Shown: positions 1-56,049 of the stretch, one piece after another
Numbering within the stretch: position 1 is the stretch's first letter
Layout: each line of letters starts with the position of its first letter
Source of the DNA: a virus
Virus record (IMG/VR): IMGVR_UViG_3300031520_000003
Span: 1-56,049 of that record
Strand: one strand, 5' to 3'
Length of the DNA stretch: 56,049 nucleotides
Notes under the pieces: generated by a model
What the model saw: only the letters and a program-made list of their open reading frames with translations
Databases searched by the model: none
What the model was told of the DNA's origin: nothing
Translations under genes and position numbers: made by a program

Positions 1-127
1 TCCAGAGCAGGGCTGATTGCCTCGTTGCCTCAGTGCGTCTTCTTCTGGCTGTTGCCTCAGCCCATTTTCTTGCGCATGCATTCCACACTCCCCTCCCAAC
101 AGCAGTGCGAGGAAAGCGCACTCTGCG
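1..127. repeat. Terminal direct repeat, copy 1 (circular-closure overlap)
   Basis: Bases 1-127 are identical base for base to 55923-56049. Confidence 0.95.
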
Positions 128-4833: not shown

Positions 4834-6099
4834 TTGAGAAGCCTCAACCTGTGGTATACTGGCTCTATAGGCTGTGCCCCTTGAGTTGCGAAGAACCCCT
4901 TTGATGGCCTGGTGGAAACAGCCTTGTTTTTGTTTCATGATCTTCCCCTTCATGATTTTCCCGAGGGACCTCGGGAACAGGTCATCGTCGAACGGACCGG
5001 TCACTATGGACGTGCTCTTGAGCAATTTCTGCACGAGCGAGGCATCACGATCTACGAGGTCCACCCACAAGAGCACACGTCGCGCAACAAAAGCGATAAG
5101 CGCGATGCACAGATGTTGGCAGCCCTCTTGTACAATCAGGTGGAGCGCGGTGTCTTGGTCACGGATGAAAACCAGATCGCCCGCAGGCTGGTGCCACCTC
5201 ATGAGACGGTGCAACTGCTGCAAGGTCTGGTCCAGCACCGATTGGAACTGGTTCGCGAGAGCACACAGCGCAAAAATAAGCTGACCGCCATCGCCGATGA
5301 ACTGTTTCCTGAATTGACCCAGGTCAATTCGGACCCCAACAGCCAGAGCGCGTTGGCACTCAGGAAACAGTATCCGTCCCCACAAGATATCGAGAAAGCA
5401 GCTCTCGACGCCTTGTGTGAGACGCGCCTGCATACGCGTCCAAGTCGCGCACATCTCGCAGAATTGCAAGACCTGGCACGCACGACGATTGGCACGAAAC
5501 ACCCATCCAGACGCACAAGCTTGCTTCTGGAGCAAAAGCAACTCATTGCCGAACTGCACTTGCTTCAAGAGCACCTGGACGTGTTGGAAGAGGAGATTGA
5601 AACCGCTCTGCACGAGAGTCGAGACGGACGAATCTTGCTCTCGTTTCCCACCATCGGGACGACGCAAGCCTCGATCATTTTGGCGCACATGGGCAACGTC
5701 GCCAACTATCCGCGTGCCTCGAAACTGCGTGGATATATGGGTTGGTCGCCTCACCAGCGACAGACAGGCACATCCACAGACAGCATGACCTTGACCAAGG
5801 GAGGCAATCCTCTGCTGAAGCAGACCATGTTCCTGGTCTCGCTCACCGCTATTCGGACGGATACGCAGTGGCGCACCCTCTACCACCGCCTGGTGCCGCG
5901 CATCTGCCAGTTCGACGAGCGAACCGGACGCTATAAAGGTCGCATGAAGGTGATCGGACGCATCGCGGGTCCGATGATCGGCCTGATCTATGTCCTGCTG
6001 AGAAAGGATTATGACCTGCTGGCTGCGCTTGCCGAGGGAGAGGACCCGCCGGAGCCGGAGGTGTACGAGCGGAGCAAACACCGCGTTCGTGGAAGCTAA
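4834..6099 (+). mobile_element. IS110-family element, degenerate copy (exact ends not determined)
   Basis: The transposase reading frame is open from TTG 4834 but is interrupted by TGA 4882-4884. It is inserted against the direction of the surrounding minus-strand operon. Confidence 0.6.
4912..6099 (+). CDS. IS110-family (DEDD) transposase, N-terminally truncated, probably defective
   Basis: VERTGHYG, KSDKRDAQMLA and the C-terminal SFPTIGTTQASIILAHMGNV...GGNPLLKQTMF motifs are present. The first catalytic G-I-D-V-x-K block is missing. Confidence 0.8.
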   Translation: METALFLFHDLPLHDFPEGPREQVIVERTGHYGRALEQFLHERGITIYEVHPQEHTSRNKSDKRDAQMLAALLYNQVERGVLVTDENQIARRLVPPHETVQLLQGLVQHRLELVRESTQRKNKLTAIADELFPELTQVNSDPNSQSALALRKQYPSPQDIEKAALDALCETRLHTRPSRAHLAELQDLARTTIGTKHPSRRTSLLLEQKQLIAELHLLQEHLDVLEEEIETALHESRDGRILLSFPTIGTTQASIILAHMGNVANYPRASKLRGYMGWSPHQRQTGTSTDSMTLTKGGNPLLKQTMFLVSLTAIRTDTQWRTLYHRLVPRICQFDERTGRYKGRMKVIGRIAGPMIGLIYVLLRKDYDLLAALAEGEDPPEPEVYERSKHRVRGS

Positions 6100-14018: not shown

Positions 14019-14236
14019 ATCCGTGGCTCATTGGACTTGCTTTCGTTGGCGTTCTCTGTCTGCTGTATGGTTGGATCGTCATGATCGTACGCAGAAATCA
14101 TGCTCAGATGATGGCTGAGGTAGAAAGGAAGAATAGGCAGTTGATCCGTGAGCAGTTTCCGGCTTCCGACTATGAAAGCATGTATGAGAACCTGCTCAGT
14201 CATGCAGAAGAGGAGGCGGCGAAACTGCGTGCATAA
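14015..14236 (+). CDS. small single-pass membrane protein
   Basis: N-terminal TM segment LIGLAFVGVLCLLYGWIVMIV. Confidence 0.6.
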   Translation: MNPWLIGLAFVGVLCLLYGWIVMIVRRNHAQMMAEVERKNRQLIREQFPASDYESMYENLLSHAEEEAAKLRA

Positions 14237-15098
14237 TCCGCTTCATTGGCTCTATCAGCAATCGGGAGGGGTACTGCGCTCTGGGTGTGTCTCCTGCTAC
14301 TTGTGCGGCGGCACCTCGACAGAGACACACGCCGTTTCCAAGACGGTAGCCGATACCTTCAATTCCCACTATCTCGCACAGTGTCCCTCATCCTCGTGGG
14401 TGTGCGATGCCTGTGCATGGTATCTCGACAATAGTGGCGTGCATCCCGATTTCCGCAAAATGAGCCTCATCGTCCAACGCGACTCGTGGCAGAATTGGCA
14501 ACGTCCTACCATGAAACACGATGTGACGCAGTGGCTTACCTTTGGCCTTGATGGTGATGCCTACTTGGTTGTTTCGCTCTCCAAAAAGAAACATATCCTG
14601 ATGCAGGCACCGCTCAATGTCTCGTCAAGTCGAGATATAGCTGTTCAAGTCGAGGAAAACGTCGCATTCTTGTCCTTGTGGCAATGGGAAGCGATGGACG
14701 GACCGTTTCTGCGCTTGCTTGCGTTAGGACATGGCAAAGGGGAGATTCTTTCAGGCAATCTCTACGGTCAAACATTACGCAAGCATGGTCAACTCATGGA
14801 AGCGTTGCGGCTCAATCAGGAACTAGAGCCGTACCGCAAGAGTCCACAGATCGAGTTATTGAGTTACGTCACGATTGTGGAAGAAAGGACACAAGACGAT
14901 GATCGAGGAACAGGAACAACAGGCATTTCAGAGAGAGCTAGAACTGAGGCAAGTGGCGTCAGTGCTGCTAGGAGCCGTGTGGAAGAAGATCGACCCCGAG
15001 TACAAGAGCAAGTACCGAGCAGAGATTTGGCGGCAATTCGAGGAGAGGCTCCAGACCTCGGCACGGATTACGCCCAACTTGACCTCTTTTCTCAGTAA
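14229..15098 (+). CDS. csf1: Csf1-like (type IV Cas8-like) large subunit, zinc-finger N-terminus
   Basis: CVSCYLCGG...CPSSSWVCDAC Cys cluster; first gene of a Csf-type cluster. GTG 14229 lies 12 nt after GGAGG (alternative start ATG 14202; ORF open from 14148). Confidence 0.45.
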   Translation: MHNPLHWLYQQSGGVLRSGCVSCYLCGGTSTETHAVSKTVADTFNSHYLAQCPSSSWVCDACAWYLDNSGVHPDFRKMSLIVQRDSWQNWQRPTMKHDVTQWLTFGLDGDAYLVVSLSKKKHILMQAPLNVSSSRDIAVQVEENVAFLSLWQWEAMDGPFLRLLALGHGKGEILSGNLYGQTLRKHGQLMEALRLNQELEPYRKSPQIELLSYVTIVEERTQDDDRGTGTTGISERARTEASGVSAARSRVEEDRPRVQEQVPSRDLAAIRGEAPDLGTDYAQLDLFSQ

Positions 15099-15291
15099 GT
15101 TCTGTACTCTGTTTCAGGTCGCTGAGATTGGGATCGATGCCGATGAACGCCTAGAGGTTGAACGCATCTTAGCAGGCGGGTACGGCAATCCAGACGACAT
15201 TTTGTACGGCTTGCGTCGGGACCCGCAAGTGTGTGTCTTGTTGTTGAGAAATCGGTTAGATGAGGAGAAAGTCAATGCAGGCTACAAGTAG
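14899..15291 (+). CDS. cas11: Cas11-like small subunit (tentative)
   Basis: About 130 aa and helix-type (EEQEQQAFQRELELRQ...), lying between the large subunit and the Cas7-like gene. Overlaps the csf1-like 3' end out of frame. Confidence 0.35.
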   Translation: MIEEQEQQAFQRELELRQVASVLLGAVWKKIDPEYKSKYRAEIWRQFEERLQTSARITPNLTSFLSKFCTLFQVAEIGIDADERLEVERILAGGYGNPDDILYGLRRDPQVCVLLLRNRLDEEKVNAGYK

Positions 15292-16219
15292 TTATCGATT
15301 TGAGGGGATCGCACGCGCTCTGAGTGCGGTCTCGCATCTGGGGGAGAGCACAGGCGGCACCACCGCCATTTTCCGACGCGAGAAAGTCTGTGCAGGTGGG
15401 CGTGTAATCGAGGTGCCTATCCTCTCAGGCAATGCCTTTCGGGGACAACTCAGAGACACGGGTATGCGTTTCATGCTGAGGGAATTAGGTGATCCTCAGC
15501 TTTCCCCTCCTGCGTTCCACTTCCTGACATCGGGAGGCGCACTCACCAAAGACAGTGGACGTGGACTTGACATCGGACAGGCGCGCCGTTTACAAGCGTT
15601 GATTCCACTGGTGGGTGTCTTTGGCGGTGCGTGTGGACGCCAAATCCTTCCAGGCAAACTGCAAGTCGGTAAGTGGTATCCCGTGTGTCAGGAGCTTGTT
15701 GATCTCTTGCCACAGAAGTATCACCAGGAGGACCTGGTGAGCATCTACGACTTGACCGATCTTCACAGCTTTACCCGTACCGATGATGCCAAATCTGAGA
15801 AATGGCAAAAGTTCTTGCCACAAGAGCAGAGAAGCCTGTTAGAGGCTCCCAAGACAAAGACAGCCAAAGATGGGACAGAAGTTGCAGACAAGCCAGGCGT
15901 GGCGCAACAAATGCGCTACTCCCAGGAGGTGCTGATCGCAGGAACGCGCTTCTCCTGTTGGCTTCAACTGCAAGATGTGACCGATCTCGAGTACGAAGCG
16001 TTTGCCTCGGCTCTGATCGAATGGAGTAAGGCTCCCTTTGTCGGGGGACAATCTCGACATGGCTGCGGCGAGGTCGAGTTGCGCTTTGACAACTGGATGA
16101 GCATATCTCCTCTCGCGCGTGATGAGAAAGGGGTCGGATTACCTCTTGGCACGGCGTATCATGACCATTTGCAGACACAGCGTGAAGCTATTCTCGATGC
16201 GCTCAAGGAGATCGCGTGA
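15275..16219 (+). CDS. csf2: Csf2-like Cas7-family RAMP protein
   Basis: VPILSGNAFRGQLRD, LTSGGAL and the C-terminal Gly loop VGGQSRHGCGEV. ATG 15275 follows GAGGAGAAAG. Confidence 0.6.
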   Translation: MQATSSYRFEGIARALSAVSHLGESTGGTTAIFRREKVCAGGRVIEVPILSGNAFRGQLRDTGMRFMLRELGDPQLSPPAFHFLTSGGALTKDSGRGLDIGQARRLQALIPLVGVFGGACGRQILPGKLQVGKWYPVCQELVDLLPQKYHQEDLVSIYDLTDLHSFTRTDDAKSEKWQKFLPQEQRSLLEAPKTKTAKDGTEVADKPGVAQQMRYSQEVLIAGTRFSCWLQLQDVTDLEYEAFASALIEWSKAPFVGGQSRHGCGEVELRFDNWMSISPLARDEKGVGLPLGTAYHDHLQTQREAILDALKEIA

Positions 16220-16980
16220 TGGATCAGCCCATGCGGATTATCGCGTACCTTGCTGGTTCCATTGCGCTCGCCCGTCCTGAAGACCTGGCCCTTGATGGAC
16301 TGCTTGCCTATCAGGTGCTCCGCAAGCATTTCGGCTCTGACTTCTACACGTTGCCAGACCCCAAAGACGTGCTGTACTTTGCCCGCCTCCCACTCGAGAT
16401 GCGTGGTGCTCCTGATGCGTCTGTAGAACGTCTGCAGACGGGCGAGGTCTGGTACCATCGTGGACAGGGCATTGCGGATGAGAGCCTGTGGTACTGGGCG
16501 TGTTCCTCGGCACAAATCGAGGTCAAGGGACGTGACACACAGTATTGGAACAAGCGTTTTGATACGCAGGCATCGCTCTCGGACCGGATTGATTTCGGGG
16601 GGCGTGTCGAGAAAATCTTGATTGAGCAAGGTCGCTACAAAGCCTATCATATGCCCCTTCCTACGCTTGTTACAGACAAGGTGACGTGGTATGCCTATGG
16701 GGATATGGAAGCAGTTGCCGATGTGCTCATTGCGATCGTGGCGATGGGCAAAAAAAGAGTGCAGGGGAACGGACATGTTTTGCGGTGGGAGATCACACCA
16801 ATGGATGAGGATTATTCGCTCTGGCATGATGATCGTCTCATGCGCCCCGTCCCAGGTCCGCTTCTGCGGGGCATACAGTGGGATATTCCGTTCAATCTTC
16901 AGCACAGTGCGTTTCGCGCTCCACAATGGCACGCAGCCAATCAAGCACTGTGCGTGGTTGGAGGCAAGAGGCATGCGTGA
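16219..16980 (+). CDS. csf3: Csf3-like Cas5-family RAMP protein
   Basis: N-terminal LALDGLLAYQV and C-terminal Gly loop GKKRVQGNGHV. TGATG coupling to csf2, with AAGGAG upstream. Confidence 0.5.
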   Translation: MDQPMRIIAYLAGSIALARPEDLALDGLLAYQVLRKHFGSDFYTLPDPKDVLYFARLPLEMRGAPDASVERLQTGEVWYHRGQGIADESLWYWACSSAQIEVKGRDTQYWNKRFDTQASLSDRIDFGGRVEKILIEQGRYKAYHMPLPTLVTDKVTWYAYGDMEAVADVLIAIVAMGKKRVQGNGHVLRWEITPMDEDYSLWHDDRLMRPVPGPLLRGIQWDIPFNLQHSAFRAPQWHAANQALCVVGGKRHA

Positions 16981-17722
16981 CATGGAACGGTTCCAACACG
17001 AATTGTACGCAACGTTCCCAGCATTTCAGCGCAAGGTGGAGCAAGCGCAAAGACTGGTTGAGGATGCTTTGCAGCAGATGAGCCGTCCGTATATCGCCAC
17101 CAGTAGCGGCAAGGACTCGTGTGTGACCTCTCACCTGGTCTGGTCTGTCAATCCTGATGTGCCTGGCGTCTACTTTGATGCCGATTGCGCGTTCCCTGAG
17201 ACGCGAGACTACTTCGAGAGGCTTTCACGCCATCGTACGATCATCACGTGGAAGACGGAGCCACTGCTGGATACCTTTGCACGGTGCGGCGGTCCTACGG
17301 CTCCTGGTATCGGCAACGCGACGATGGAGAGCACCGTGTACGCTCCTCTTCGCTCACTCTTCGCTGAGTATCATTTTGACGGCGTGTTCTTGGGACTGCG
17401 AGCACAGGAGAGCGAGGGACGGTCCAAGAGTGCGCAATTCCACGGCTCGCTGTACCGATACAAGCGAGATGGTGTGTTGCGCTGCTTGCCTGTTGCCACG
17501 TGGACGCATCAAGATATTTGGGCGTATATCGTCAGTCGCAACCTGGACTATAACCGTGTCTATGACACGATGCAGGACATGCCGATTGCAGATAGACGCG
17601 TGTCCTATTGGGCAGGTGAGACAAAGAGACGTTGGGGAAGATGGACGTTTTTGAAGAAGCACTATCCTGATCTCTGGAACCGATTTGCTGAGAGATTCCC
17701 TGAAGTGCGAGAATATGTATGA
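16973..17722 (+). CDS. cysH: PAPS reductase / CysH-like PP-loop enzyme
   Basis: PP-loop motif SSGKDS. ...FLGLRAQESEGR... is typical of the PAPS_reduct family. ATG 16973 lies 9 nt after GGAGG and overlaps the csf3 stop. Confidence 0.8.
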   Translation: MRDMERFQHELYATFPAFQRKVEQAQRLVEDALQQMSRPYIATSSGKDSCVTSHLVWSVNPDVPGVYFDADCAFPETRDYFERLSRHRTIITWKTEPLLDTFARCGGPTAPGIGNATMESTVYAPLRSLFAEYHFDGVFLGLRAQESEGRSKSAQFHGSLYRYKRDGVLRCLPVATWTHQDIWAYIVSRNLDYNRVYDTMQDMPIADRRVSYWAGETKRRWGRWTFLKKHYPDLWNRFAERFPEVREYV

Positions 17723-21159: not shown

Positions 21160-22503
21160 ATGAGTAATACACATCAAACGAGCCCCTTGACAGACAGAGA
21201 GCGGTTTCTCTTGAACATTCTCATTCTCAACCTTCCCGAATGGGAGGTCACACAGATTGATGAAGATGAGGACGATTACGTGATTACAGCACGTCCGTCC
21301 TCGTCTCTCTCTATCTGCCCCTTCTGCGGATATGATACTCTCTACAAGCATGGCGACCTTGAGCAACACATCCGCGATGTGCCAAGTCATGGCAAGCGCG
21401 TGCTGATTCAGGTGACCCGTCAACGCTATCGGTGCAAACACTGCACGAAAACGAGTTTTGAGACGTTGCCTGACATTGATGAGAAACGGTTCTGCACCAA
21501 GCGGCTCATTACGTTCTTGCAACGACGATCCATGAATGATGATCGCACGTTTCTCTCCCTGGCGGAAGAAACTGGCCTCCATGAAAAAACGGTTCGTCGT
21601 ATCTTTCACGATTATGTTCTTGAGTTAGAACGTTCAACGCATTTTGCAACACCCCGAATCATGGGCATGGATGAACTCCATGTTATCCACCAGCCACGAG
21701 CGATTATTACCAATATTGAGAGAAACACGGTAGTTGAGTTCCTGGCAGACCGCAAAAAACAAACGATCATCCGGTATCTTTCGAGTGTGCCAGATCGTGA
21801 ACACATAGCTCTCGTGTGCATCGACATGTGGCAGCCGTACCGTGAGGCCGTGAGAGAAGTCTTGCCGCACGCAATCATTGTGATTGATAAGTTCCATGCC
21901 GTAAAATTAGCGAATCAAGCGATGGAAGTTGTCCGAAAAGAGGTTCGCGCTAGCCTCACGGAAAAACAACGTCGAACGCTCATACATGATCGCTTCTTGT
22001 TGCTCAAGCGAGAAAGCGAGTTAAAGGAAAAAGAACGATTGACGCTGGAAGCATGGACGGGCAGCTTCCCAACGCTCAAAAAAGCGTATGACCTCAAGGA
22101 AGCGTTCTATGAGATATGGGATGCTCCTGATAAAGATGAGGCACATCAACGCTACTTTGCATGGCAGGAGCAAATTACACCAGAGGTTACTAGTGCCTTT
22201 ACACCTATTGCTTTAACCGTCGAAGAATGGGGCGATGAAATCTTTGCCTACTTCGATCATCGCATTACTAACGCCTACACGGAATCACTCAATGGTTTAG
22301 CAAGGGTCGCGAATCGATTGGGTAGGGGGTACTCTTTTCAGGTATTACGGGCAAGATTACTCTACGGAATAGGCCAGCATCGGCGACGAAAAGCAAAAGT
22401 GTCGAATGTGGAATCGGACTCTGAGGGAGTGGCCCTGTCCACACTCGAACAATCTGTTCTGGATTCGGGTTTAGAGACCAAAAACACGGTAGAAGCCGAA
22501 TAA
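21160..22503 (+). CDS. ISL3-family transposase
   Basis: N-terminal zinc-finger pattern CPFCG...YRCKHC, then the DDE_Tnp_ISL3-type core (IDMWQPY, VIDKFH, TNAYTESLNG). Confidence 0.9.
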   Translation: MSNTHQTSPLTDRERFLLNILILNLPEWEVTQIDEDEDDYVITARPSSSLSICPFCGYDTLYKHGDLEQHIRDVPSHGKRVLIQVTRQRYRCKHCTKTSFETLPDIDEKRFCTKRLITFLQRRSMNDDRTFLSLAEETGLHEKTVRRIFHDYVLELERSTHFATPRIMGMDELHVIHQPRAIITNIERNTVVEFLADRKKQTIIRYLSSVPDREHIALVCIDMWQPYREAVREVLPHAIIVIDKFHAVKLANQAMEVVRKEVRASLTEKQRRTLIHDRFLLLKRESELKEKERLTLEAWTGSFPTLKKAYDLKEAFYEIWDAPDKDEAHQRYFAWQEQITPEVTSAFTPIALTVEEWGDEIFAYFDHRITNAYTESLNGLARVANRLGRGYSFQVLRARLLYGIGQHRRRKAKVSNVESDSEGVALSTLEQSVLDSGLETKNTVEAE

Positions 22504-29198: not shown

Positions 29199-29585
29199 TT
29201 AGGATGCATGCTCCGGAGAACTGCCTCGCTTTGGCAGTGTCCTGGTTGGCCTGGTCGGTTCATTTGCTGGTCGGTAGCGTTTGCTGGTGCTGCTTGTTCC
29301 GTCGCTGATCGTCACCATTTCGCCATCCACGGTCACCACCAGACCTCGCAGCTTTAACGTTGCGATGATGGTCTCAATGACATGCTCATGGATGACGATC
29401 TTTTTCTCCAGGTCTTCGATTTTTTTTTCAAGCAGATCAGTCCGTTCTTTCAATGCCTTATTGGTCTCCTCTTGAAATTTCGTCAATTGGATTTGCCGTC
29501 CATTTCTGAAAGCAGACATGCCTCCAATGGTGAGGCAGACTGCAAGCACCGCTGACACAACAGGCAGAAAATTGAGGATGTTCAT
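29199..29585 (-). CDS. N-terminally anchored coiled-coil membrane protein (lysis-associated candidate)
   Basis: TM segment LNFLPVVSAVLAVCLTIGG, then the heptad-like LKERTDLLEKKIEDLEKKI. Confidence 0.5.
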   Translation of the reverse strand: MNILNFLPVVSAVLAVCLTIGGMSAFRNGRQIQLTKFQEETNKALKERTDLLEKKIEDLEKKIVIHEHVIETIIATLKLRGLVVTVDGEMVTISDGTSSTSKRYRPANEPTRPTRTLPKRGSSPEHAS

Positions 29586-30061: not shown

Positions 30062-33000
30062 CTATAATTGCCGCTGAAAGAGTTTCGTGAAATCGCCCAG
30101 GTCCGGACCCGACACGGCTTGAATCGTGAACCAGGGCACAGGGACGCCACCTGGTCCCGTCGTAAAGACCGTTTTCACACTGCGAATAAGCATCTGCACA
30201 TCCGTCAGATTATGCTCAGGCACGAATACGCTGAAGAGTTGCCCAGGGGCAAGTCCCCCACGCAGCGTTGTCGCAGTGAGCATCTGTCCAATCACGCCGT
30301 ATTGCTGGACTCTCGCTTGAGCCAGTTGGTCGCCTGCCGCCTTGGTGAGGCCCGTGCCATCTTCAACATTCTCCACAATGCCTGAGCCGCCTCGCAGTTG
30401 TGCTCTGGCCTGCTGTCCTGGCACGTCGTCGTACTGCGAATAGGTGAGGTACTGGCCTGTTCCTGTGAAGGTGATCGTTTGGGTGCTGTCATAGATTGGC
30501 TTGGACGGGTCTGCTGTGACAATAGGACTGCCAATCGTGTAATAGAAGTCTTTTCCGGTATCGATACCGGAGATGCCTACCAATGCAGGAGGCCCGTTGT
30601 TGACCGTGATGGTTGGCGCGGAAGCGAGAGCATTGCCCAGCGTCCAGGAAATTGAGACGCTATCCCCTTGATGCTGCTCGTTGATCGCAATGGTGGCGAG
30701 TACATTGGTGATGTATTGCCGATTGCGGTATAAATCACCCTCAACGCGCACAGTGAGGCCCGCATCTAAGAAATCTCCTCCATTGGTCGAACCGATCCAC
30801 GGCGCTGGAACCGAGGTACGCCCTTGCAGATTGAACCGCATGTTTTTGTCGATGTACCACCAGCCATTCGGGAATTTCTTCGCCAGGTCGGAAAAGTTGG
30901 CGTCCAGTGACTTGAATCCGTACTGTGTGCTCGGAATGATCGCGCCATTGCCGATAGCAGGCGAGTGTGCCGACAACGTGAGATCGAGGACTTGCGGCGT
31001 GAAGGCTGGATTGGTACTGCTGAGTCGTAAGCGCGTCAGGACCTGTCTTGCAGTCACATCGTCGCCTTGCGGCTGCATCCTGAGTTGATAGAAACGCGCG
31101 GTGCCGCCTCCGGTGCGCAGGCCACACGTGCCTCCCGCAAGCGGCGTTGGATCGGTGTAGGTCGCGACAGCCAGACCATCAAAGAAGGCCGTGATGACGT
31201 TGCCTAGCATCGTTACACGCACGCGGTGATAGGTATTCACTGGCACACGTTGGAAGTTGATCGCCGATGACGCCACCAGGGACCGTACTCCTGCCTCGAC
31301 TTCGTAGATCGCCAGAGTGTTCGGGTTGCCTGCATTGGAAGACGCATCCTGGACGACCACCTCGTAGAAGGTGTTGGTATCGGTGTAGCGCCAGACCAGG
31401 CCACCGGAATCGCTTGCGTCCATATCCGTGAAGAGATCGATATCCGTCGCCGTGAGCGTGCTATACAGACAGAGCGCGGAGGCTCCGCCCGTTGCGACCA
31501 TGCGTCTGTTGGCGCTGTCAAAGGTATAGGTGGCCGCGGTTCCCCCAGCGCGGTAGGTGCTCGTATAATTGGCTGCCGTATTGGTCGCAAAGCTGTCGAT
31601 CGTCGGGTCTGGCTGGATACCCAGGCCCGGAATGCTGCCGCCATTTTGCGCGGTCACATCCTGCCACGTGGCCCCATTGTCAATCGAGGTATCCACGCCC
31701 AATGCGGTTCCTGCTGGCAGATTCCTATTCCAGGCCACAAGGCTATTGCCCAGCCGTCCGACGTTTTGCAGCGACAGTGGCGTTCCTATGCGCGTGCCTG
31801 TGGCGTTGAACGCGCTAGTCACCAGCCAAGTGAGCCCTTGGAGGATGACGGTCACATTGGCGTTGTTGGAGGTCAGCGTGGCGCGTATTTGCAGATTGAC
31901 GCCTGAGAGGTTGAGCCCTGGTGTCAACTGCGGGATAGCCCCACCATTCGCACAGGCTTGCCAGGTGCCCCCGATGGAGGTCTCAACGAGGAGGCTGGCA
32001 TTATTGGGGACCGTCGCATTCCACTGAATCACTGATGAGCCAACGGACCCAACCGAGGTGAGGTTCGTGTAGGGCGAAACACGGTTTCCACTCAGTTGAT
32101 AGATGATGCCGAACTCCTTGAAATACGCATTATGGCGCGTGTTCGTGAGACTGTTGAAGTGGCGATATCCCACGCCGCCACTGCTATACGTCGTGTCGGT
32201 GGCGTTGATGTAGAGCACATCGTTGACATAGACCTTGTGATTGGAGCCTGTTGCGACCACTTTGAGTCGATACCAGACCCCAGATGCGAGACTGACGGAA
32301 AAGACTGCAACTCCGAAGAGATTGCCAACGGTGCCACTACTGTTGCTGCCCCGATCCAGGTGGATTCCGTTCGCATCAATGTAGGCTGCGTAGCCATAGG
32401 TATTGTTCGTGTTGCCCCAGTTCGACGTGCGATAGACGATGCCATAATTGCCCGAAGTGTCTGATGAGGAATTGCCGAATTGCACGTCCAGTTCAATCGT
32501 GCCATCCGACCAGGTTCCAACGAAATCGAGACGTGCTCGCGCATCCAGTCCACCGTCGCATCTGAGATAGTAGCTCGACAGATTGATGCCATCAGCCGGA
32601 TTACTGCCAAAGAGCGTCCTGCTGCCAACGGAGCCATCACCGTAGCTCTTAAAGGCGCCAGTCAACTCCAATGCGCCAGAACTGCCAGACGCGATGCTGG
32701 TCACGTTGCTGAGTGTGCCTGCATTCCAGTCTGCCTGCGATGTGGTGACGTTGGCGACATCCGTTTTGGTGGCAGCGTAACTGGGCGAGATCGTCACGTT
32801 CATGTCGTAGAGAATGGGTGAGATCGTCGGGTCCGATCCGCCGATAGCCAGGGTGTGGCGAAATTGGATGCTGAGACCAGTCATGTTCTGACCTGGCACA
32901 AGCCCCGGAATAGGACCGTGATTGGTGCATGGCTGCCAGGTTGCTCCACCATCAAGCGTGGTCTCAATCGTCACCTGTGGCGTTTTCGCATTTTGCGTGG

Positions 33001-35344
33001 CTGGCGATGCGTTCCAGTTGACTTGCGAGGACCTGGCAATGCCCACGCTGCCAAGCGAAAAGATCGGCGAGGTGCGATAGCCTGGATTGGTGTAGGAGGT
33101 CACTTTCGTCAGCGACACAGTGGAATAGCCGACATTGCTGATGACGATATTCTTTTGCAAGTTGTGCAAGAAAAAGGTCTGTTTGAGCGTGCTGGTGCTA
33201 TCAAAAAGCTGAATCGTATCAAAATAGGCCGTGTAGGTTCCATTCGGGTCGCCTTCCAGTGCCACTTCAATGGAAGCCAGCGTTTTTCCGGCTGCAGTCG
33301 AGAGGTCGAGTTGTCGGAAGTAGCGCGCATCGCTCGCATAGCCGGAGAGATCGCCGCCTGGATGCAGGGTGATCGACTGTTGATCGTAGATCGGAAGTCC
33401 GCGTAAGATGGTGCCATCGGTGCAGATGCCATCCACGCCTGCGATGGCCGCAGGACTGGTAGAGCTAATCCAAATGAAATAGCGTAAGGTGTCCCCAGCA
33501 GCGAGCGCAACAGCCCCTTCCCAAATTTTGATGTAGGCGTAGTTATTGGCGCTTCCTTGCTGCGAGGTGCCTTGCAATTTGAGCGCATCGTTGGGAAACA
33601 GCGTCAACTGGTCATTGACGCCATACGTCCCGACCAGGGTACTGCCTGGCGCGGACCAATCTGCTGTTCTGGTCTCCGTGACCGAGACGGTTCCGCCCGC
33701 CGGAGTCAATTCCAGGTCGCCATCGCCGACGTTGCCCGTGGCCGTGGTATTCGAGAGCGTCCCCTGTGCCAACTGCAAGCCCGTGGTCTCGCGCCTCGAT
33801 GCATACTGAGCGGTGATGCCCTCGTTGGCGAGCGTGTTCAGGAGATCGGTTGCAATCGCGCCTGCGGAGAGATTGACCCATTCAGGACCGACAAAGACGC
33901 GGTTGAGCGCGGTCTCATGATTGTCGATGCAGCCTATTTTGGTGAGGATAGTCTTGTTCGGTGAGAGGATGCTCGCTTCCGCCGTTTTGACCTCGCCAGT
34001 AAAAAAGACCCCGCGCTGCGAGTCCGAGATCGTGACCGTCTGACCTTTGGTATAGTGCTGCGTGCCCGTATCATCGCGGATCGTGAAATAGATGATCGAA
34101 GGCGTCTCTAGCGTATCCTCAAGCGAAAAGGAGCCTTCGAGGATGTGTACCGGAATGCCACTCACGCTGATCGTGATCCCCAACACAGGCGCAGGAGCCA
34201 CGCTGGACAGAACGGTGGTCTCCGCACTATAGGTTGCAAGTTGCGTATCGGTGATCGTGGCGACATACAAGCCTGTGATTGTGGTCGCCTCTGCCGCATA
34301 GGTCGTAAGCTGTGTGTCCACAATGGTTGTGGTCACGTTGGCGCGCGTGGTCGCGTTGGCATCATAGCCTGCAAGCTGTGGATCGCTTATGGATGTGCTG
34401 CCGCTTCCGGCAATGGTCGCATCTGCACTGTAGCCAGGCAGAGAGGTATCCGTGATCGGCGTGTTTCCACTGCCTGTTATGGTCGCATCTGCCGCATAGG
34501 TAGGTAATTGCGTATCGGTGATCGTGGTGGTGTAGTTGGTCGTCGGCGAAGACGCGGCAGACGTGGCATCAGCCGTATAGCCTGGGAGTTGCGTATCCGT
34601 GATCGTTGGAACGATTCCAGAGCCCGCTATCGTCGCATTGGCGTCATAGCCAGGTAATTGCGTATCACTGATCGAGGTTGTGCCACTGCCTGCTACGCTT
34701 GTCTCAGCGCTATAGGTCGAGAGTTGTGTATCCGTGATCGTCGTGGTGTAGTTGGTGTTGGAAGCCACTCCATCAGTGACCGTATAGCTGTCAAAGGTCA
34801 CGATATCTGAGGTCAGGTTGAGTTTGGTGTAGAAGCCAAAGAGACCCGAGGTGAGTGAGGTATCGGTGACAGAGGCAATCGTCCAGGTTGATGGCTCGCT
34901 TGTGCCATCGGCCCACATTTTGCCTTGAATGGTTGTGCCAATGACGCTCAGACGAAGCCAATAGAACGTATTGGCGGAAAGCGTCACCGTTGCGGTTCCA
35001 AGCGTGGTCGAGGTGCCACTGACTGTTTTGGCAAGCGTCAGCGTCGTCCCAGTCACGCTCAGCCTGTAGCGGCTCGAAGTCGTCCCAGATCCGCTTTGCC
35101 TGGTCACCAAACCAAAGCCGTCAGAGGTGGAAGACACCTGGAAGCGGATACGGCTATTGGTATCGGGTGGCGTCGTGGTACCAAGCGCGGTATTCGTGAT
35201 CGCTGTCGCACCGGTGCCTGTGCCCTCGCTTGGAGTGACTGAAAACGACACAGAGCCTTGCAGCACTTGCCAGACTTGAGTGTCTGAAGCAGTGCCTAGC
35301 CCTGTGCTCGTTCTATTGAAAGTGTCCTGTCCAAGCGTCGCCAT
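30062..35344 (-). CDS. tail fibre / host-recognition protein with LamG-like lectin modules and about 10 tandem 20-aa repeats
   Basis: 1760 aa, directly downstream of the tape measure and a distal tail gene. Three ConA/LamG-like blocks (for example YWLRLSVIGTTIQGKMWADG, WYRLKVVATGSNHKVYVND, YHRVRVTMLGNVITAFFDG). Confidence 0.8.
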   Translation of the reverse strand: MATLGQDTFNRTSTGLGTASDTQVWQVLQGSVSFSVTPSEGTGTGATAITNTALGTTTPPDTNSRIRFQVSSTSDGFGLVTRQSGSGTTSSRYRLSVTGTTLTLAKTVSGTSTTLGTATVTLSANTFYWLRLSVIGTTIQGKMWADGTSEPSTWTIASVTDTSLTSGLFGFYTKLNLTSDIVTFDSYTVTDGVASNTNYTTTITDTQLSTYSAETSVAGSGTTSISDTQLPGYDANATIAGSGIVPTITDTQLPGYTADATSAASSPTTNYTTTITDTQLPTYAADATITGSGNTPITDTSLPGYSADATIAGSGSTSISDPQLAGYDANATTRANVTTTIVDTQLTTYAAEATTITGLYVATITDTQLATYSAETTVLSSVAPAPVLGITISVSGIPVHILEGSFSLEDTLETPSIIYFTIRDDTGTQHYTKGQTVTISDSQRGVFFTGEVKTAEASILSPNKTILTKIGCIDNHETALNRVFVGPEWVNLSAGAIATDLLNTLANEGITAQYASRRETTGLQLAQGTLSNTTATGNVGDGDLELTPAGGTVSVTETRTADWSAPGSTLVGTYGVNDQLTLFPNDALKLQGTSQQGSANNYAYIKIWEGAVALAAGDTLRYFIWISSTSPAAIAGVDGICTDGTILRGLPIYDQQSITLHPGGDLSGYASDARYFRQLDLSTAAGKTLASIEVALEGDPNGTYTAYFDTIQLFDSTSTLKQTFFLHNLQKNIVISNVGYSTVSLTKVTSYTNPGYRTSPIFSLGSVGIARSSQVNWNASPATQNAKTPQVTIETTLDGGATWQPCTNHGPIPGLVPGQNMTGLSIQFRHTLAIGGSDPTISPILYDMNVTISPSYAATKTDVANVTTSQADWNAGTLSNVTSIASGSSGALELTGAFKSYGDGSVGSRTLFGSNPADGINLSSYYLRCDGGLDARARLDFVGTWSDGTIELDVQFGNSSSDTSGNYGIVYRTSNWGNTNNTYGYAAYIDANGIHLDRGSNSSGTVGNLFGVAVFSVSLASGVWYRLKVVATGSNHKVYVNDVLYINATDTTYSSGGVGYRHFNSLTNTRHNAYFKEFGIIYQLSGNRVSPYTNLTSVGSVGSSVIQWNATVPNNASLLVETSIGGTWQACANGGAIPQLTPGLNLSGVNLQIRATLTSNNANVTVILQGLTWLVTSAFNATGTRIGTPLSLQNVGRLGNSLVAWNRNLPAGTALGVDTSIDNGATWQDVTAQNGGSIPGLGIQPDPTIDSFATNTAANYTSTYRAGGTAATYTFDSANRRMVATGGASALCLYSTLTATDIDLFTDMDASDSGGLVWRYTDTNTFYEVVVQDASSNAGNPNTLAIYEVEAGVRSLVASSAINFQRVPVNTYHRVRVTMLGNVITAFFDGLAVATYTDPTPLAGGTCGLRTGGGTARFYQLRMQPQGDDVTARQVLTRLRLSSTNPAFTPQVLDLTLSAHSPAIGNGAIIPSTQYGFKSLDANFSDLAKKFPNGWWYIDKNMRFNLQGRTSVPAPWIGSTNGGDFLDAGLTVRVEGDLYRNRQYITNVLATIAINEQHQGDSVSISWTLGNALASAPTITVNNGPPALVGISGIDTGKDFYYTIGSPIVTADPSKPIYDSTQTITFTGTGQYLTYSQYDDVPGQQARAQLRGGSGIVENVEDGTGLTKAAGDQLAQARVQQYGVIGQMLTATTLRGGLAPGQLFSVFVPEHNLTDVQMLIRSVKTVFTTGPGGVPVPWFTIQAVSGPDLGDFTKLFQRQL
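34190..34760 (-). repeat. In-frame tandem repeats (period about 66-72 bp) encoding TITDTQLPGY.A.AT units
   Basis: The recurrent DNA core TTGCGTATC(C/G)GTGATCG and the recurrent peptide, read directly. Confidence 0.8.
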
Positions 35345-48594: not shown

Positions 48595-49959
48595 CTAATA
48601 GCCTCTATAGTTGTTCAGGTCGGTCACAAGATCACTGTCGAGCTCTGCCATTTCTCCCAATCCTGCGTCAACATGAGCCACGGCATACCGAGCGGTATCG
48701 AGTGCGTGGTTATTCTCGTCCACCGGAACTTCCTTCACAGGCTTTCCGTCTTTGGCTTGCGGCCACACGTAGGCGTCGATCTCCTGCTCAAAACAGTACG
48801 GCTTGTGCGCCTGCTCTAAGGTCTCATCGCGCTCGCGAAGTGCATATTCGTAGACACAGAAGCGCGGGCGTCCATCTGGGCAGGGCTTCAGTCTGGTCGC
48901 GAGATAATTGATACCTGGCACAATCTCGTTTGATGCCCCTTTCGCATGAAGCCCATGCGTGTTGAATTGCTGAATATAGGCGGGTTCCGATGGATCACAC
49001 GCCCAATGCTCAATGCCGAATTCCTGCGTGAGCAGGTGTGCTTGCGCAATCCACCAATCAATCGTGCGCTTTGTGCGATAGACCTCACACAGCTGATACA
49101 TCCTGCCATCGTAATCAATGGCGTAGACCTGCAAGCAGCCAGGATTGGTATAGCCCCAGTCCGCAGCACCGAGCACGTGACGAACCGCTGTGCGATTGAG
49201 TGAACCATTGGAGTACAGGATGTTCCATGCAACGAGGTGTGCGTGCGTGACCAGGTGAACAGGACGATTCCATTCTTCATAGACAAGTCCTTCAGCAGCC
49301 GCCCATCGTCCCAGATAATAGCGTTCATAACGCACGCCTGTCAGTGCCTTCAAGCGTGCTAATCGTTCTGGTGTGATCGAAGGGTTATCTTCATGACGAC
49401 TCTGGAGCATTTTTGTGCTCCCCCGATCACAGCGACGCTTGAGCCAGTGCGTTGGCGGACCAGGATTGCAGTCGCCCAGCAATTGCTGATACGGCATCGC
49501 CCCATTCCGCAGGCGCATACCCAGGATTTCCCAATCATTCTCGTTCAGTTCTGTCGCTTCCTGCGGATAGATCATGTCCCATTCTGAAGACAGCACTTTT
49601 TCGGCGTTATCCATGCCGCCAACGGCAAGAATGGAGCCATTGGGATATTCGTATTGCTGCTCTGTCGTATTGAAGCGAATCAGCTTGCCGAGCCAGCCGT
49701 GTGGAAGCACTTTCTTTTCATACGTCACCATTGCCGTTTGGCTGAGACTTGTTCGCGTCTTACGCACCATCAGGAGGCGAGCATTGGGATATTTGTCGGC
49801 GCAGTAATGCAGTTTCTCCAGGATACTTCTGCTCTTGCCCGTGTCAGCAGGTCCACAGAGGAGCAACTCAGGACGACGCGAACGCCATGCGAGACGCGAT
49901 GCGCCAAAGGGTTGGTAGGGAGCGCGTTCCTTTGGCCGTGAAAGCACAGCAGACGTCAT
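48595..49959 (-). CDS. terL: terminase large subunit
   Basis: Walker A LLLCGPADTGKS, ATPase and nuclease halves, 454 aa. Confidence 0.9.
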   Translation of the reverse strand: MTSAVLSRPKERAPYQPFGASRLAWRSRRPELLLCGPADTGKSRSILEKLHYCADKYPNARLLMVRKTRTSLSQTAMVTYEKKVLPHGWLGKLIRFNTTEQQYEYPNGSILAVGGMDNAEKVLSSEWDMIYPQEATELNENDWEILGMRLRNGAMPYQQLLGDCNPGPPTHWLKRRCDRGSTKMLQSRHEDNPSITPERLARLKALTGVRYERYYLGRWAAAEGLVYEEWNRPVHLVTHAHLVAWNILYSNGSLNRTAVRHVLGAADWGYTNPGCLQVYAIDYDGRMYQLCEVYRTKRTIDWWIAQAHLLTQEFGIEHWACDPSEPAYIQQFNTHGLHAKGASNEIVPGINYLATRLKPCPDGRPRFCVYEYALRERDETLEQAHKPYCFEQEIDAYVWPQAKDGKPVKEVPVDENNHALDTARYAVAHVDAGLGEMAELDSDLVTDLNNYRGY

Positions 49960-50459
49960 AGCTCCTCCTCAATTCCGTCATCATCGGGCGTGTTGATGTA
50001 TTCTTTGGGAGTCGTGGTCACGTTGAGAGTTGCGCTCTTGTCGCGGAACTCTGGCATGCGAGACTTGGCAAGGAGTGCTAAGAGGCTATCACTATACTTG
50101 GGCACAGTAAGAGGCTCATCATTGTGGTAGACAATCTTGCCCATACTCGTGACAAATTCATCTACTCCGTCGATGGCACGTCGCTTCATTTCGGCACGTA
50201 TCACATCATCAGCATCGGCGCGAGCTTGATGGTATTGGAACGAGAATTCCTGATCGTGTTCTTGCCACTCGTAGACCGTTGAGCGATGAATACCAGCAAC
50301 CTGACACGCATCTTTGATGGTGACGCACTCAGCTAATGCCTCCAAAAACGCATGTTGTGCAGCTTTGCGTTTCCGTGGTTTCAATGGCCCTGACTTGCGT
50401 GTGGGAGGTGTCGGAATGTCGGAATTCACGCTCAATTCTTCCTTCTTAGTGTTCCCCAA
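49956..50459 (-). CDS. terS: terminase small subunit (HTH)
   Basis: HTH IKDACQVAGIHRSTVYEW. Overlaps the terL start. Confidence 0.75.
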   Translation of the reverse strand: MGNTKKEELSVNSDIPTPPTRKSGPLKPRKRKAAQHAFLEALAECVTIKDACQVAGIHRSTVYEWQEHDQEFSFQYHQARADADDVIRAEMKRRAIDGVDEFVTSMGKIVYHNDEPLTVPKYSDSLLALLAKSRMPEFRDKSATLNVTTTPKEYINTPDDDGIEEEL

Positions 50460-50946: not shown

Positions 50947-51318
50947 TTACCCAAAAAAGCCGCAGAAGACGGTGCCTTGTGGCAACGCAGGCAGTGGCAC
51001 GATATACACAAAGCGTTGTGTCGCCTGATTGACGATCTGTGTCACGGTAGCGCGTTGCTGCACCAGTGTTCGCATGATTGAGCGAGACAGAGGCTCCAGG
51101 TCCTCTTCCGCGATGAACAGATATTTGGGGTCGGCGTCATGCTGGGCGTACAGTGTGGCGAACACCTCTTGTACGGACTCACACGTGACCTCTGGCAGCG
51201 TCACCATCGCGCTGTGGTAATCGCCAATGGTGTGCTGATCGGCGAGTTTCTGTGCAAGCATCTTGCGCGTCACCATCGGATATTCTGCTACATCTGTCTT
51301 TCGGTTGATGATCGTCAT
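50947..51318 (-). CDS. hypothetical protein
   Basis: ATG 51318 follows GGAGGAAGG-N6. The ORF stays open to GTG 51426 through the duplicated repeat. Confidence 0.55.
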   Translation of the reverse strand: MTIINRKTDVAEYPMVTRKMLAQKLADQHTIGDYHSAMVTLPEVTCESVQEVFATLYAQHDADPKYLFIAEEDLEPLSRSIMRTLVQQRATVTQIVNQATQRFVYIVPLPALPQGTVFCGFFG

Positions 51319-51407
51319 ATCAATCCTTCCTCCTGTCCAATCGGCTGTCCTGGTCTCCGTGATCGAGACCGTCTTTCGGTTGATGATCGTCATATCAATC
51401 CTTCCTC
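51296..51407 (-). CRISPR. Candidate mini-array: 37-bp repeat, 38-bp spacer, 37-bp repeat
   Basis: GTCTTTCGGTTGATGATCGTCATATCAATCCTTCCTC occurs perfectly at 51296-51332 and 51371-51407. The 38-bp insert matches tail-fibre bases 33652-33689 at 32/38 positions. Confidence 0.4.
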
Positions 51408-51472
51408 GGCCCGTGAATGCCGCCACGTCTTTCCCTGCCTTCCCTTCCTTCGTATCGAAAGGTGCCTGAAGA

Positions 51473-51517
51473 AAGACAAAAACGGCATTCGACTCCTACG
51501 AAGGAATCGAACGCCGT
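51473..51517 (-). terminator. Rho-independent terminator, minus-strand specific
   Basis: A 16-bp stem with a 4-nt loop (51482-51517). The two non-Watson-Crick positions are G-U on the minus-strand RNA but A-C on the plus-strand RNA. A U-run follows on the minus strand. Confidence 0.7.
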
Positions 51518-52108
51518 TAATCGTTTGCCGTCACTGGCACGTTCACAGATGTTTCAAACCCGATACGGGAAGCTGGGATGGAGGATGCCTTGTGTTCGTC
51601 ATCCTACCCTGATGGAATGCGTATCATGCAGAAGCATTCCATCCTCATCACCTGCATTGCGAAACGGATCCGCACAACACAAGGCTTTTCCTGCTCCATA
51701 TGGAGCAAGCTGGCTTTCCTCCTCGCCAGGACACTTTCAACAATTGGGTATGCTCAGAGTATAGCACACACAAGACGAATCAGGAAGCTTCGTGCTGCTC
51801 TGGAAACAGAGGGACCGTCATGAACCCCATGCCTAAAGGCGAGGGGCTTGTGTCTGGACTCCACTTCAACTCTCTTGAGCAGAATGCCTCAAGAGCTTCA
51901 GTTTCACGGTCCGACACATCAAGGCACCATGACAAGGTACCTGTCCTTTCTCAGCAGAGCGGTCAAGCTACTTCCGAAAAAGGAACGTTGTTCGACCAAG
52001 AACATTTTACCTTCGCGTGGATTTCCGCGAAGAACGCCTTATGTTCAATTATCAAAGAACCATGAGGAAAACTGTCTCTCTCTGGCGAACCAGAGTGTCT
52101 TACCCTCA
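51518..52108 (-). ncRNA. Candidate ~600-nt structured non-coding transcript / late-operon leader
   Basis: Bounded by a consensus promoter and a terminator. The track lists no minus-strand ORF of 60 aa or more here. Several perfect hairpins are present (52080-52095, 52011-52032, 51611-51643). Confidence 0.4.
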
Positions 52109-52114
52109 GGACAG

Positions 52115-52143
52115 AGTATAGCACATTGACATCTCGGTGTCAA
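52115..52143 (-). promoter_or_regulatory. Consensus sigma70 promoter, leftward (TTGACA-N17-TGcTATACT)
   Basis: Minus strand: TTGACA (52138-52143), 17-nt spacer, TATACT (52115-52120) preceded by TGC. Confidence 0.7.
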
Positions 52144-52154
52144 GCGTGTATCAT
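52126..52154 (+). promoter_or_regulatory. sigma70-like promoter, rightward (TTGACA-N17-TATCAT), leaderless start
   Basis: TTGACA 52126-52131 and TATCAT 52149-52154. ATG 52161 lies only 6 nt after the -10 box. Confidence 0.6.
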
Positions 52155-52160
52155 GGCACT

Positions 52161-52337
52161 ATGAGAAAGAAACAAGCTAATGCAACAACAATTCGACTTG
52201 AACTCGCAGATCGAGAAGCGATTGCACACATCCGAGAACTCTACGGATGTTCGTCTGATAGTGCAGCAATCAAACTCGCAGTACGCATGGTGGCAAGACA
52301 AGAGCTACCTACACGCGCCATTCCTCCTCGTGACTAG
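52161..52337 (+). CDS. ribbon-helix-helix (CopG/Arc-like) DNA-binding protein
   Basis: TIRLELADREAIAHIRELYGCSSDSAAIKLAVRMVA fits a beta-strand plus two helices. The ORF is open from 52137. Confidence 0.6.
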   Translation: MRKKQANATTIRLELADREAIAHIRELYGCSSDSAAIKLAVRMVARQELPTRAIPPRD

Positions 52338-52579
52338 AAGTCAGGGGCATCCTGGCGCGACCTGGTGAAATCCCGTCGCCATTGGTCGGGCATGAAGGAG
52401 GTGAGCCATCGAACGGGTCCGATCCGACCCTTCTCGACGCGAGCCGTCAGCTCTGCATAGCCCCCGTTACGCCGCTTAATGTAGCCAATTTCTCGATCCA
52501 GCCACTTGACCCAGGTTGGCGAGAGATGCTTGAGTTTGATCGCTGCATGCCGATCTGTGTCGTCTGTAGATGTCCCCAT
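52334..52579 (-). CDS. hypothetical protein
   Basis: 81-aa ORF, convergent with the RHH gene. Confidence 0.5.
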   Translation of the reverse strand: MGTSTDDTDRHAAIKLKHLSPTWVKWLDREIGYIKRRNGGYAELTARVEKGRIGPVRWLTSFMPDQWRRDFTRSRQDAPDF

Positions 52580-55922: not shown

Positions 55923-56049
55923 TCCAGAGCAGGGCTGATTGCCTCGTTGCCTCAGTGCGTCTTCTTCTGGCTGTTGCCTCAGCCCATTTTCTTGCGCATG
56001 CATTCCACACTCCCCTCCCAACAGCAGTGCGAGGAAAGCGCACTCTGCG
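55923..56049. repeat. Terminal direct repeat, copy 2 (circular-closure overlap)
   Basis: Identical to bases 1-127. Confidence 0.95.

Follow-up and report, generated by a model that had tools for sequence, protein, structure and literature searches.

Surveys of type IV-B CRISPR-Cas systems have found no arrays, mini-arrays or solitary repeats with this subtype (PMC7038947), and the 2025 classification lists type IV-B as array-less, with an unknown mechanism (PMC12669027). One archaeal virus has type IV-B together with a one-spacer mini-array (PMC10848311), and the mini-arrays of viruses are mostly directed at related viruses (PMC11656645, PMC6858448). Here, we analyzed a phage genome, IMG/VR record IMGVR_UViG_3300031520_000003 (positions 1 to 56,049, hereafter the window), that encodes a complete type IV-B effector module (Csf1, Cas11, Csf2, and Csf3) and a CysH-like gene at 14148-17722 (+ strand). 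The same genome carries a single CRISPR-like unit. It consists of two direct repeats of 37 nt that are perfectly alike (51296-51332 and 51371-51407) and, between them, a unique 38-nt segment (51333-51370) that is homologous to a part of the phage's own tail-fiber gene. Perfect 37-nt repeats around a unique 38-nt insert are the footprint of CRISPR spacer integration.

The repeat reads GTCTTTCGGTTGATGATCGTCATATCAATCCTTCCTC on the + strand and GAGGAAGGATTGAT-ATG-ACGATCATCAACCGAAAGAC on the − strand (in short, GAGGAAGGATTG...TCAACCGAAAGAC). On the − strand, repeat copy 1 (51371-51407; GAGGAAGGATTGATATGACGATCATCAACCGAAAGAC) would be leader-proximal if transcription runs on that strand. It is followed by the spacer (51333-51370; GGTCTCGATCACGGAGACCAGGACAGCCGATTGGACAG) and by repeat copy 2 (51296-51332), which is 100% identical to copy 1. 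No degenerate extra repeat copy beyond chance was found in the window or in related loci. The putative leader (51408-51518, − strand) consists of a 17-bp intrinsic terminator (51518->51481) and then 73 nt that end in TCACGGGCC beside repeat copy 1. Repeat copy 2 supplies the Shine-Dalgarno (SD) sequence, the ATG (51318-51316) and seven codons of an orphan gene of 123 amino acids (50947-51321, − strand), for which no homologue was found in 5.8 billion proteins or in terL-related phage loci. In Rfam, the stretch of spacer and repeat copy 1 (51336-51402, − strand) has a weak resemblance to sR21, a C/D-box small RNA of archaea (E = 0.65, 20.1 bits), which we take as chance.

A strain that is 98 to 99% identical to the window is present in Logan sample SRR22405847 (loci L002-L004). 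Its k = 31 contigs break off after exactly 30 nt of the upstream repeat copy and resume with exactly the last 30 nt of the downstream one. Because the breaks lie 30 nt inside the repeat on both sides, the repeat appears to be duplicated in this strain too. A matching k = 31 contig break, on the terminase side, was found for the window's own strain in SRR8416121. Upstream of the array, a 546-bp segment (51819-52364) is missing from the SRR22405847 strain (98% identical at L004). It contains divergent near-consensus promoters (52115-52154), a small ribbon-helix-helix-like open reading frame (ORF; 52137-52337, + strand) and an ORF of 81 amino acids (51820-52065, + strand). From its − strand promoter, a transcript of ~630 nt is predicted, which has no called gene and ends at the terminator directly upstream of the array.

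The initial annotation of this DNA, made from the sequence alone, had reported that the spacer resembles the fiber gene, and both sequences that it quoted are present in the window: the fiber 42-mer ACCGTCTCGGTCACGGAGACCAGAACAGCAGATTGGTCCGCG at 33650-33691 and the 42-mer that it called the spacer region, ACGGTCTCGATCACGGAGACCAGGACAGCCGATTGGACAGGA, at 51331-51372, both on the − strand. The extent of the spacer needed revision. The true spacer has 38 nt; two bases at the start of the 42-mer (AC) and two at its end (GA) are part of the repeats on either side, and the spacer does not encode the last residue (G) of the peptide given earlier. The protospacer-like site in the fiber gene (33652-33689, − strand) agrees with the spacer at 32 of 38 bases, for which the chance expectation in the window is ~3e−9. 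The spacer is certainly homologous to the fiber gene. The site is translated as ...GGTVSVTETRTADWSAPGS... in the reading frame of the fiber ORF (30062-35344, − strand), a tail-fiber-like gene of 1,760 amino acids downstream of the tape-measure gene. It sits ~1.66 kb from the start of this 5.3-kb coding sequence and not at a promoter. The 5′ part of the fiber gene (34215-34741, − strand) also contains seven diverged copies of a 66- to 81-nt coding repeat (peptide motif ...ITDTQLPGY.A.AT...), and its central part encodes 3-keto-disaccharide hydrolase (DUF1080-like) domains.

The six differences between spacer and fiber (positions 1, 8, 22, 28, 35, and 37 of the 38-mer) fall on four third and two first codon positions. 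Three of the affected codons are changed synonymously (ACC/ACG, AGA/AGG, and GCA/GCC), and two change the amino acid, one from V to I (GTC/ATC) and one from S to T (TCC/ACA, two bases in one codon). The initial claim that the differences follow codon structure stands in that they are protein-conservative. When six substitutions are placed at random, an equal or better BLOSUM62 score arises in 0.2% of trials (P = 0.002), at least four third positions are hit with P = 0.09, and at most two amino acid changes result with P = 0.065. The codon-structured pattern is real, and it rests on six sites only. Together with the chance expectation of the match, the conservative differences support the earlier statement that the 38-mer looks like neither a random similarity nor a direct copy of this genome. 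Judged from the two sequences, the pattern shows that one of the two copies, spacer or fiber, evolved as coding sequence after their separation.

The origin proposed initially for the 38-mer, the coding fiber gene of a diverged relative, fits the protein-conservative differences, and no donor was found. The exact spacer has no match in IMG/VR, a degenerate pattern built on the peptide common to spacer and fiber, VS[V/I]TETRTADW, has none in IMG/VR or the JGI metagenomes, and blastn gave no donor among the GenBank phages. The related fiber genes that the initial annotation had suggested comparing do not carry the exact spacer: the site is identical to the window's in the SRR22405847 strain (L003), and IMG/VR, JGI and GenBank phages hold no better match. 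Other fiber homologues in IMG/VR have at most 44% protein identity, with a conserved family motif (LELxPAGxxVxxxExTTADF/W). Protein searches with two fiber fragments returned nothing, not even the phage's own protein, which is a cluster representative in the collection searched, and are uninformative. The fiber genes of the window and the SRR22405847 strain differ at 75 sites, 58 of them third codon positions, and all but one of these sites are in the 3′ 40% of the gene. Because not only the protospacer-like site but the whole 5′ 3 kb of the gene is identical in the two strains, the divergence of spacer and fiber is older than the split between them. The spacer may have come from a diverged relative or from the fiber gene of this phage itself, in an ancestral or exchanged form, with the gene changing afterward; the data fit both origins.

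The first sign of the effector module was a Csf3 gene call beside a PAPS-reductase gene on a Logan contig, and targeted profile scans then confirmed the set. On the + strand, csf1, for the type IV Cas8-like large subunit (14148-15098; PADLOC Csf1_0_IV, 8.6e−19; NCBIfam cas8u_csf1, 1.5e−6), is followed by cas11, for the type IV small subunit (within 14875-15291; PADLOC typeIV_Cas11, 1.2e−13), whose true start probably lies further downstream, as the listed ORF overlaps the end of csf1. Next come csf2 (Cas7; 15260-16219; PADLOC, 4.1e−73; NCBIfam, 4.4e−19) and csf3 (Cas5; 16216-16980; PADLOC, 5e−45), and then a cysH-like gene of the PAPS-reductase family (16973-17722; Pfam PAPS_reduct, 1.5e−21) that overlaps the end of csf3. 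The NCBIfam matches to these genes are below the curated cutoffs, but the genes are intact and syntenic. The best solved structure for Csf2 is the type IV-B complex 7JHY (E = 3.8e−28), far ahead of the Csf2 structures of type IV-A. This architecture is type IV-B as defined (PMC7038947), and a cysH-like accessory gene nearly always accompanies the subtype. At the sensitivity of hidden Markov models (NCBIfam and PADLOC, E ≤ 1e−3), none of the 76 other ORFs encodes Cas1, Cas2, Cas4, Cas6/Csf5, DinG, or RecD; the genome is without adaptation, Cas6, helicase or nuclease genes. Two further PADLOC matches among the 76 scanned ORFs, to "Unk_01, unknown small protein sometimes fused to CARF" (6.5e−20) and to "C3a69" (1.6e−7), were not localized to a gene; they do not stem from any of 20 ORFs that we tested around the cas locus.

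On the circular genome, the shorter path between the array and csf1 measures 18.7 kb. The array is next to the packaging module (48595-50459, − strand), with terS (49956-50459) and terL (48595-49959) downstream of it. In IMG/VR, close relatives of Csf2 are found on two contigs only, L057 (61.5 kb in full) and L058 (103 kb in full), with 77 to 79% amino acid identity. Both contigs contain csf1-cas11-csf2-csf3-cysH and CRISPR-like repeats. The L057 array has eight copies of the 37-nt repeat CTTGCAAGGCATGATAAGGAAGATGGGGATAGGCCAC, the last of them degenerate, and spacers of 35 to 38 nt. With cysH ~3 kb upstream of it and terS/terL 650 nt downstream, the linkage of array and packaging genes is common to the window and L057. 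In L058, a unit of two repeats and one spacer (39/33/39 nt) lies 1.3 kb upstream of csf1. Type IV-B genes and arrays of 37- to 39-nt repeats are thus found in all three genomes of this Csf2 clade, and it is in having arrays, the mini-array in the window and those in both of its close relatives, that the clade differs from what is typical of the subtype. In the array region of L057 (L057:8700-10790), two adjacent spacers are identical, as in a duplicated repeat-spacer unit, and the array is directly downstream of a TnpB-like ORF of 491 amino acids ending in ...DRDHNAAINIV....

The repeats of the three genomes are related only in part. Those of the window and L058 share GAG(G)AAGGATT...TCAACCG (shuffle P ~ 0.015), and the L057 repeat is unrelated to the window repeat. 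The 9 nt that precede the first repeat are TCACGGGCC in the window (51408-51416) and TCACCGGCC in L057 (10188-10196), identical at 8 of 9 positions, a resemblance that was noticed after the fact; the equivalent 9 nt of L058 are CTTCCGGC. The junction may be a leader-repeat signal or a coincidence, and no conserved leader was found beyond these 9 nt. Over 17 nt, the L058 spacer (unit at L058:7465-7575) is identical to a part of csf3 in the same phage (L058:11044-11060; chance, ~4e−5), with no similarity beyond that stretch, and the L058 repeat-spacer-repeat unit lies in frame within a − strand ORF (72-nt period).

The 37/38/37-nt geometry, the foreign coding fragment as insert and the cas genes in the same genome make an origin of the unit by CRISPR integration very likely, whether or not the unit now works. 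That it is a functional mini-array, with a spacer from the fiber gene of a diverged relative and a role in competition between phages, is the reading that we prefer, and we give it an even chance. It is favored over a mere scar of integration because arrays occur in three of the three genomes of the Csf2 clade, because the position at the packaging genes is kept, and because the repeat is partly like that of L058. The inter-phage targeting suggested initially gains strong support from the phage's own complete IV-B module and from the same-geometry arrays of related IV-B phages.

In such a system, a host Cas1-Cas2 integrase would have inserted a fiber fragment of a diverged, coinfecting relative and thereby duplicated the repeat. 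The array would be transcribed on the − strand, toward the orphan gene and terS/terL, as suggested by analogy with the degenerate distal repeat of L057 and by the shared junction motif. A host Cas6 or another RNase could mature the CRISPR RNA (crRNA), and either the IV-B complex of the phage, which lacks a nuclease, or an effector of the host would take it up. Given − strand transcription, the crRNA would have the sense of the fiber mRNA and would pair with the template DNA strand, and its target would therefore be DNA and not RNA. By binding the fiber gene of a competitor, the complex may block its expression or replication. The phage's own fiber copy would be spared through two mismatches within the first eight positions at each end of the spacer (1 and 8; 35 and 37), and since these lie near both ends, it would be spared whichever end holds the seed. 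More tentatively, we propose that a clade of soil phages, probably of Ktedonobacteria, may have recoupled the "array-less" IV-B effector to arrays of its own. Host adaptation enzymes would supply the spacers. Rivals would be countered by silencing of their structural genes, here the tail fiber, with the Csf complex, devoid of a nuclease and perhaps aided by the CysH-like protein, as the programmable silencer.

Several observations weigh against a functional array. Scans of IMG/VR, of the JGI metagenome contigs and of 185,579 genomes that represent species gave no occurrence of the exact repeat. Its halves gave five single chance matches with nonmatching flanks in IMG/VR and otherwise zero, and it matches neither CRISPR-DR nor any other family in Rfam; a repeat that equals one of the host is the defining trait of virus-borne mini-arrays. 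None of the searched collections holds a donor that fits the spacer better. The repeat contains a good SD (GAGGAAGGA, 5 nt, ATG), typical of this phage's genes, and the start and the first seven codons of the orphan gene; moreover, the 75-nt period (25 codons) puts the upstream repeat copy in frame, as expected from a duplicated native gene start. In the in-frame upstream copy, the spacer is read through in the fiber's own frame (MTIINRKTVSITETRTADWTGGRIDMTIINRKTDV...). No sigma-70-type promoter was found in the 73-nt leader after the strong terminator. The canonical IV-B complex, as solved, binds heterogeneous non-CRISPR RNA (PMC7937560), and the link between array and IV-B proteins is one of co-occurrence only. 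Among GenBank phages, a Csf2 homologue was found in Skermania SPI1 only (35% identical); this more distant IV-B phage has no mini-array in the 47.7 kb examined, and the association with arrays therefore appears specific to the clade of the window, L057 and L058.

The properties of the repeat are also what would be expected of a neo-CRISPR scar. Host Cas1-Cas2 would have integrated a prespacer from a related phage off target, at the 5′ end of the orphan gene, and so duplicated 37 bp of native sequence (SD, ATG, and seven codons), with no guide processed from it. The unit would persist since the duplication leaves an intact copy of the gene and an in-frame upstream copy. A scar is favored over function because the repeat holds a gene start and is unique. 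In addition, the orphan ORF is open for 123 codons downstream of repeat copy 2, there are two copies only with no recognizable leader or promoter, and the L058 unit likewise keeps the frame of the ORF that contains it. New arrays are known to arise by off-target integration (Nivala 2018 via 10.1101/148544; Shmakov 2020 via PMC13142298). A scar would, however, have to coincide with a phage-encoded CRISPR effector, with same-geometry arrays in both close IV-B relatives, and with the position upstream of terS/terL that is also that of the L057 array. The purine-rich, SD-like motif is present in the L058 repeat as well and may thus be a feature of the repeat and not of a gene start. No empty, preinsertion site is known for comparison: homologues of the orphan gene were not found, and the one close relative appears to share the duplication. 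On balance, we consider a scar unlikely, but a serious competitor of the functional mini-array.

The self-match of the L058 spacer and the absence of a nuclease from type IV-B prompted us to consider a regulatory guide as well. A crRNA-like RNA, analogous to CreA and tracr-L, would direct the nuclease-less IV-B complex to the phage's own fiber gene by partial pairing and so tune late expression. The only detectable match of the spacer is in the same genome, and the L058 spacer matches its own csf3 over 17 nt (chance, 4e−5). Type IV-A works by transcriptional silencing (PMC12669027), and partially matching crRNA-like regulators are widespread and used by phages (10.1101/2023.03.03.530964; 10.1101/2024.10.29.618823). 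The mismatches, on the other hand, follow codon structure, which fits the divergence of a coding homologue and not selected pairing, and to judge from the seeds of other class 1 systems, binding should suffer in both orientations, since each end of the spacer has two of the mismatches among its outermost eight positions. The target, 1.66 kb inside a 5.3-kb gene, is not a promoter, and the repeats are perfect and distant from the cas genes, unlike those of known regulators. Self-regulation is hence improbable in our judgment.

Least probable is a non-CRISPR origin with accidentally CRISPR-like dimensions, through recombinational capture of a fiber fragment (as raised in the initial annotation), templated insertion or replication slippage, or a retroelement diversity system: fiber genes are recombination hot spots, and the differences between the window and L003 do cluster in the 3′ part of the gene, but homologous or illegitimate recombination does not leave an exact 37-bp duplication around a 38-bp foreign insert, which plain fragment capture leaves unexplained. 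Narrower candidates were rejected as well. A tandem duplication does not fit, as the spacer resembles neither the DNA that follows repeat 2 nor that which precedes repeat 1; for a diversity-generating retroelement, only three of the six differences fall on adenines of the spacer copy and two on adenines of the fiber copy, and no reverse transcriptase was found; and an invertible cassette does not agree with two copies on the same strand. No tRNA was found that would make the upstream hairpin a tRNA or a phage attachment site (attP), and the NCBIfam match that hinted at TIGR-Tas belongs to an IS110 transposase.

The genome that carries the mini-array (contig k141_413917 of metagenome assembly ERZ27247748) is a circularly assembled phage genome with a unit of ~55.9 kb (55,922 bp); the first 127 nt of the window (1-127) equal the last 127 nt (55923-56049), which is the overlap of a circular k = 141 assembly. 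A CRISPR-length spacer between direct repeats (37/38/37 nt), as in a mini-array, is therefore found here in a viral genome, with terS, terL, tape-measure and fiber genes. These genes are on the − strand, as is a portal-sized ORF between terL and the capsid-region genes. Other genes of the phage encode Rad52 and a C5-methylase. Two insertion sequences, IS110 (4912-6099, + strand) and ISL3 (21160-22503, + strand), are also present in related Logan contigs. The IS110-family transposase, of an RNA-guided family, was recognized by NCBIfam (2.7e−43). The ISL3 transposase lies in a patch of low GC content (47%) and has 80% protein identity with one in a metagenome-assembled genome of Ktedonobacteraceae (one match in a genome scan), the sole clue to the host; plasmid matches to the transposases are at most 50% identical and uninformative in this respect. 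From this similarity, the host is probably a bacterium of the Ktedonobacteria. The 128-amino-acid product of 29199-29585 (− strand) clusters at 90% with a protein encoded on another contig, of 67,546 bp (P0022), which suggests a further related phage genome and a candidate source of the spacer.

We regard this case as a rare type IV-B system with a readable guide, likely a weapon against related phages. Type IV-B is the most enigmatic CRISPR subtype, and an array-bearing clade of three related phage genomes gives a handle on it. The locus offers a concrete guide, a concrete target (the tail-fiber gene of relatives) and a natural, mismatched "self" control, a combination that allows asking if type IV-B is RNA guided, if its action is silencing and not cutting, and which part the CysH-like protein plays. 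If the clade has indeed recoupled the effector to its own arrays, type IV-B would be genuinely crRNA guided in nature, and conflict between viruses by means of mini-arrays would extend from archaeal viruses to bacterial phages with an effector of their own. If the unit is a scar instead, it would be a rare natural record of Cas1-Cas2 spacer integration into a phage genome.

Among the known systems, the locus is similar to the virus-borne mini-arrays of the Saccharolobus portogloboviruses SPV1 and SPV2 (Medvedeva et al. 2019, PMC6858448; PMC11656645) in having one spacer and two repeats in a viral genome and in the proposed role in competitor exclusion; the spacers of those arrays are directed at a gene of a closely related virus, as the one here may be. 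In SPV1 and SPV2, the repeats are identical to host CRISPR repeats and the host Cas proteins do the work, whereas here the repeat matches nothing known, the phage has its own effector genes, and the only match is one of 32/38 to the phage's own gene. Neo-CRISPR loci (Nivala et al. 2018; Shmakov et al. 2020) resemble it in that a spacer-sized insert lies in a repeat-length duplication away from cas genes. The documented loci are in bacterial chromosomes, whereas the event here would have taken place in a phage genome that encodes an effector module. The crRNA-like regulators CreA, tracr-L and crlRNAs (10.1101/2023.03.03.530964, 10.1101/2024.10.29.618823) likewise have a mini-array spacer that is partly complementary to a target in the same element. 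They are found in or beside cas loci and have degenerate repeats and promoter targets, in contrast to the perfect repeats and the match in the middle of a structural gene that we describe, 18.7 kb away from the cas genes.

The effector genes have known counterparts in the canonical IV-B systems of actinobacterial plasmids (Mycobacterium sp. JS623, PDB 7JHY, PMC7937560; survey, PMC7038947), which share csf1-cas11-csf2-csf3 with an adjacent cysH-like gene and the lack of Cas6, helicase, nuclease and adaptation genes. The Csf2 protein of the phage is 33 to 35% identical to those of the plasmid systems. The plasmid systems have no arrays, mini-arrays or solitary repeats and form complexes on non-CRISPR RNA, whereas the phage and both of its close relatives carry arrays. 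With the virus-borne mini-arrays, the closest known case is Fuxivirus, a virus of Bathyarchaeia (PMC10848311), with csf1, csf2, csf3, a cysH-like gene, a two-repeat, one-spacer array and no adaptation genes. Fuxivirus is archaeal, and its array is part of the cas locus and has a spacer for which no protospacer was found; the phage described here has a bacterial host (probably of the Ktedonobacteria), its array is beside the packaging genes and the homologue of the spacer can be identified. Four differences set the present case apart from those known: it is a bacterial one, type IV-B genes and arrays recur together in the small clade to which it belongs, one array of that clade has eight repeats, and the spacer has an identifiable target class.

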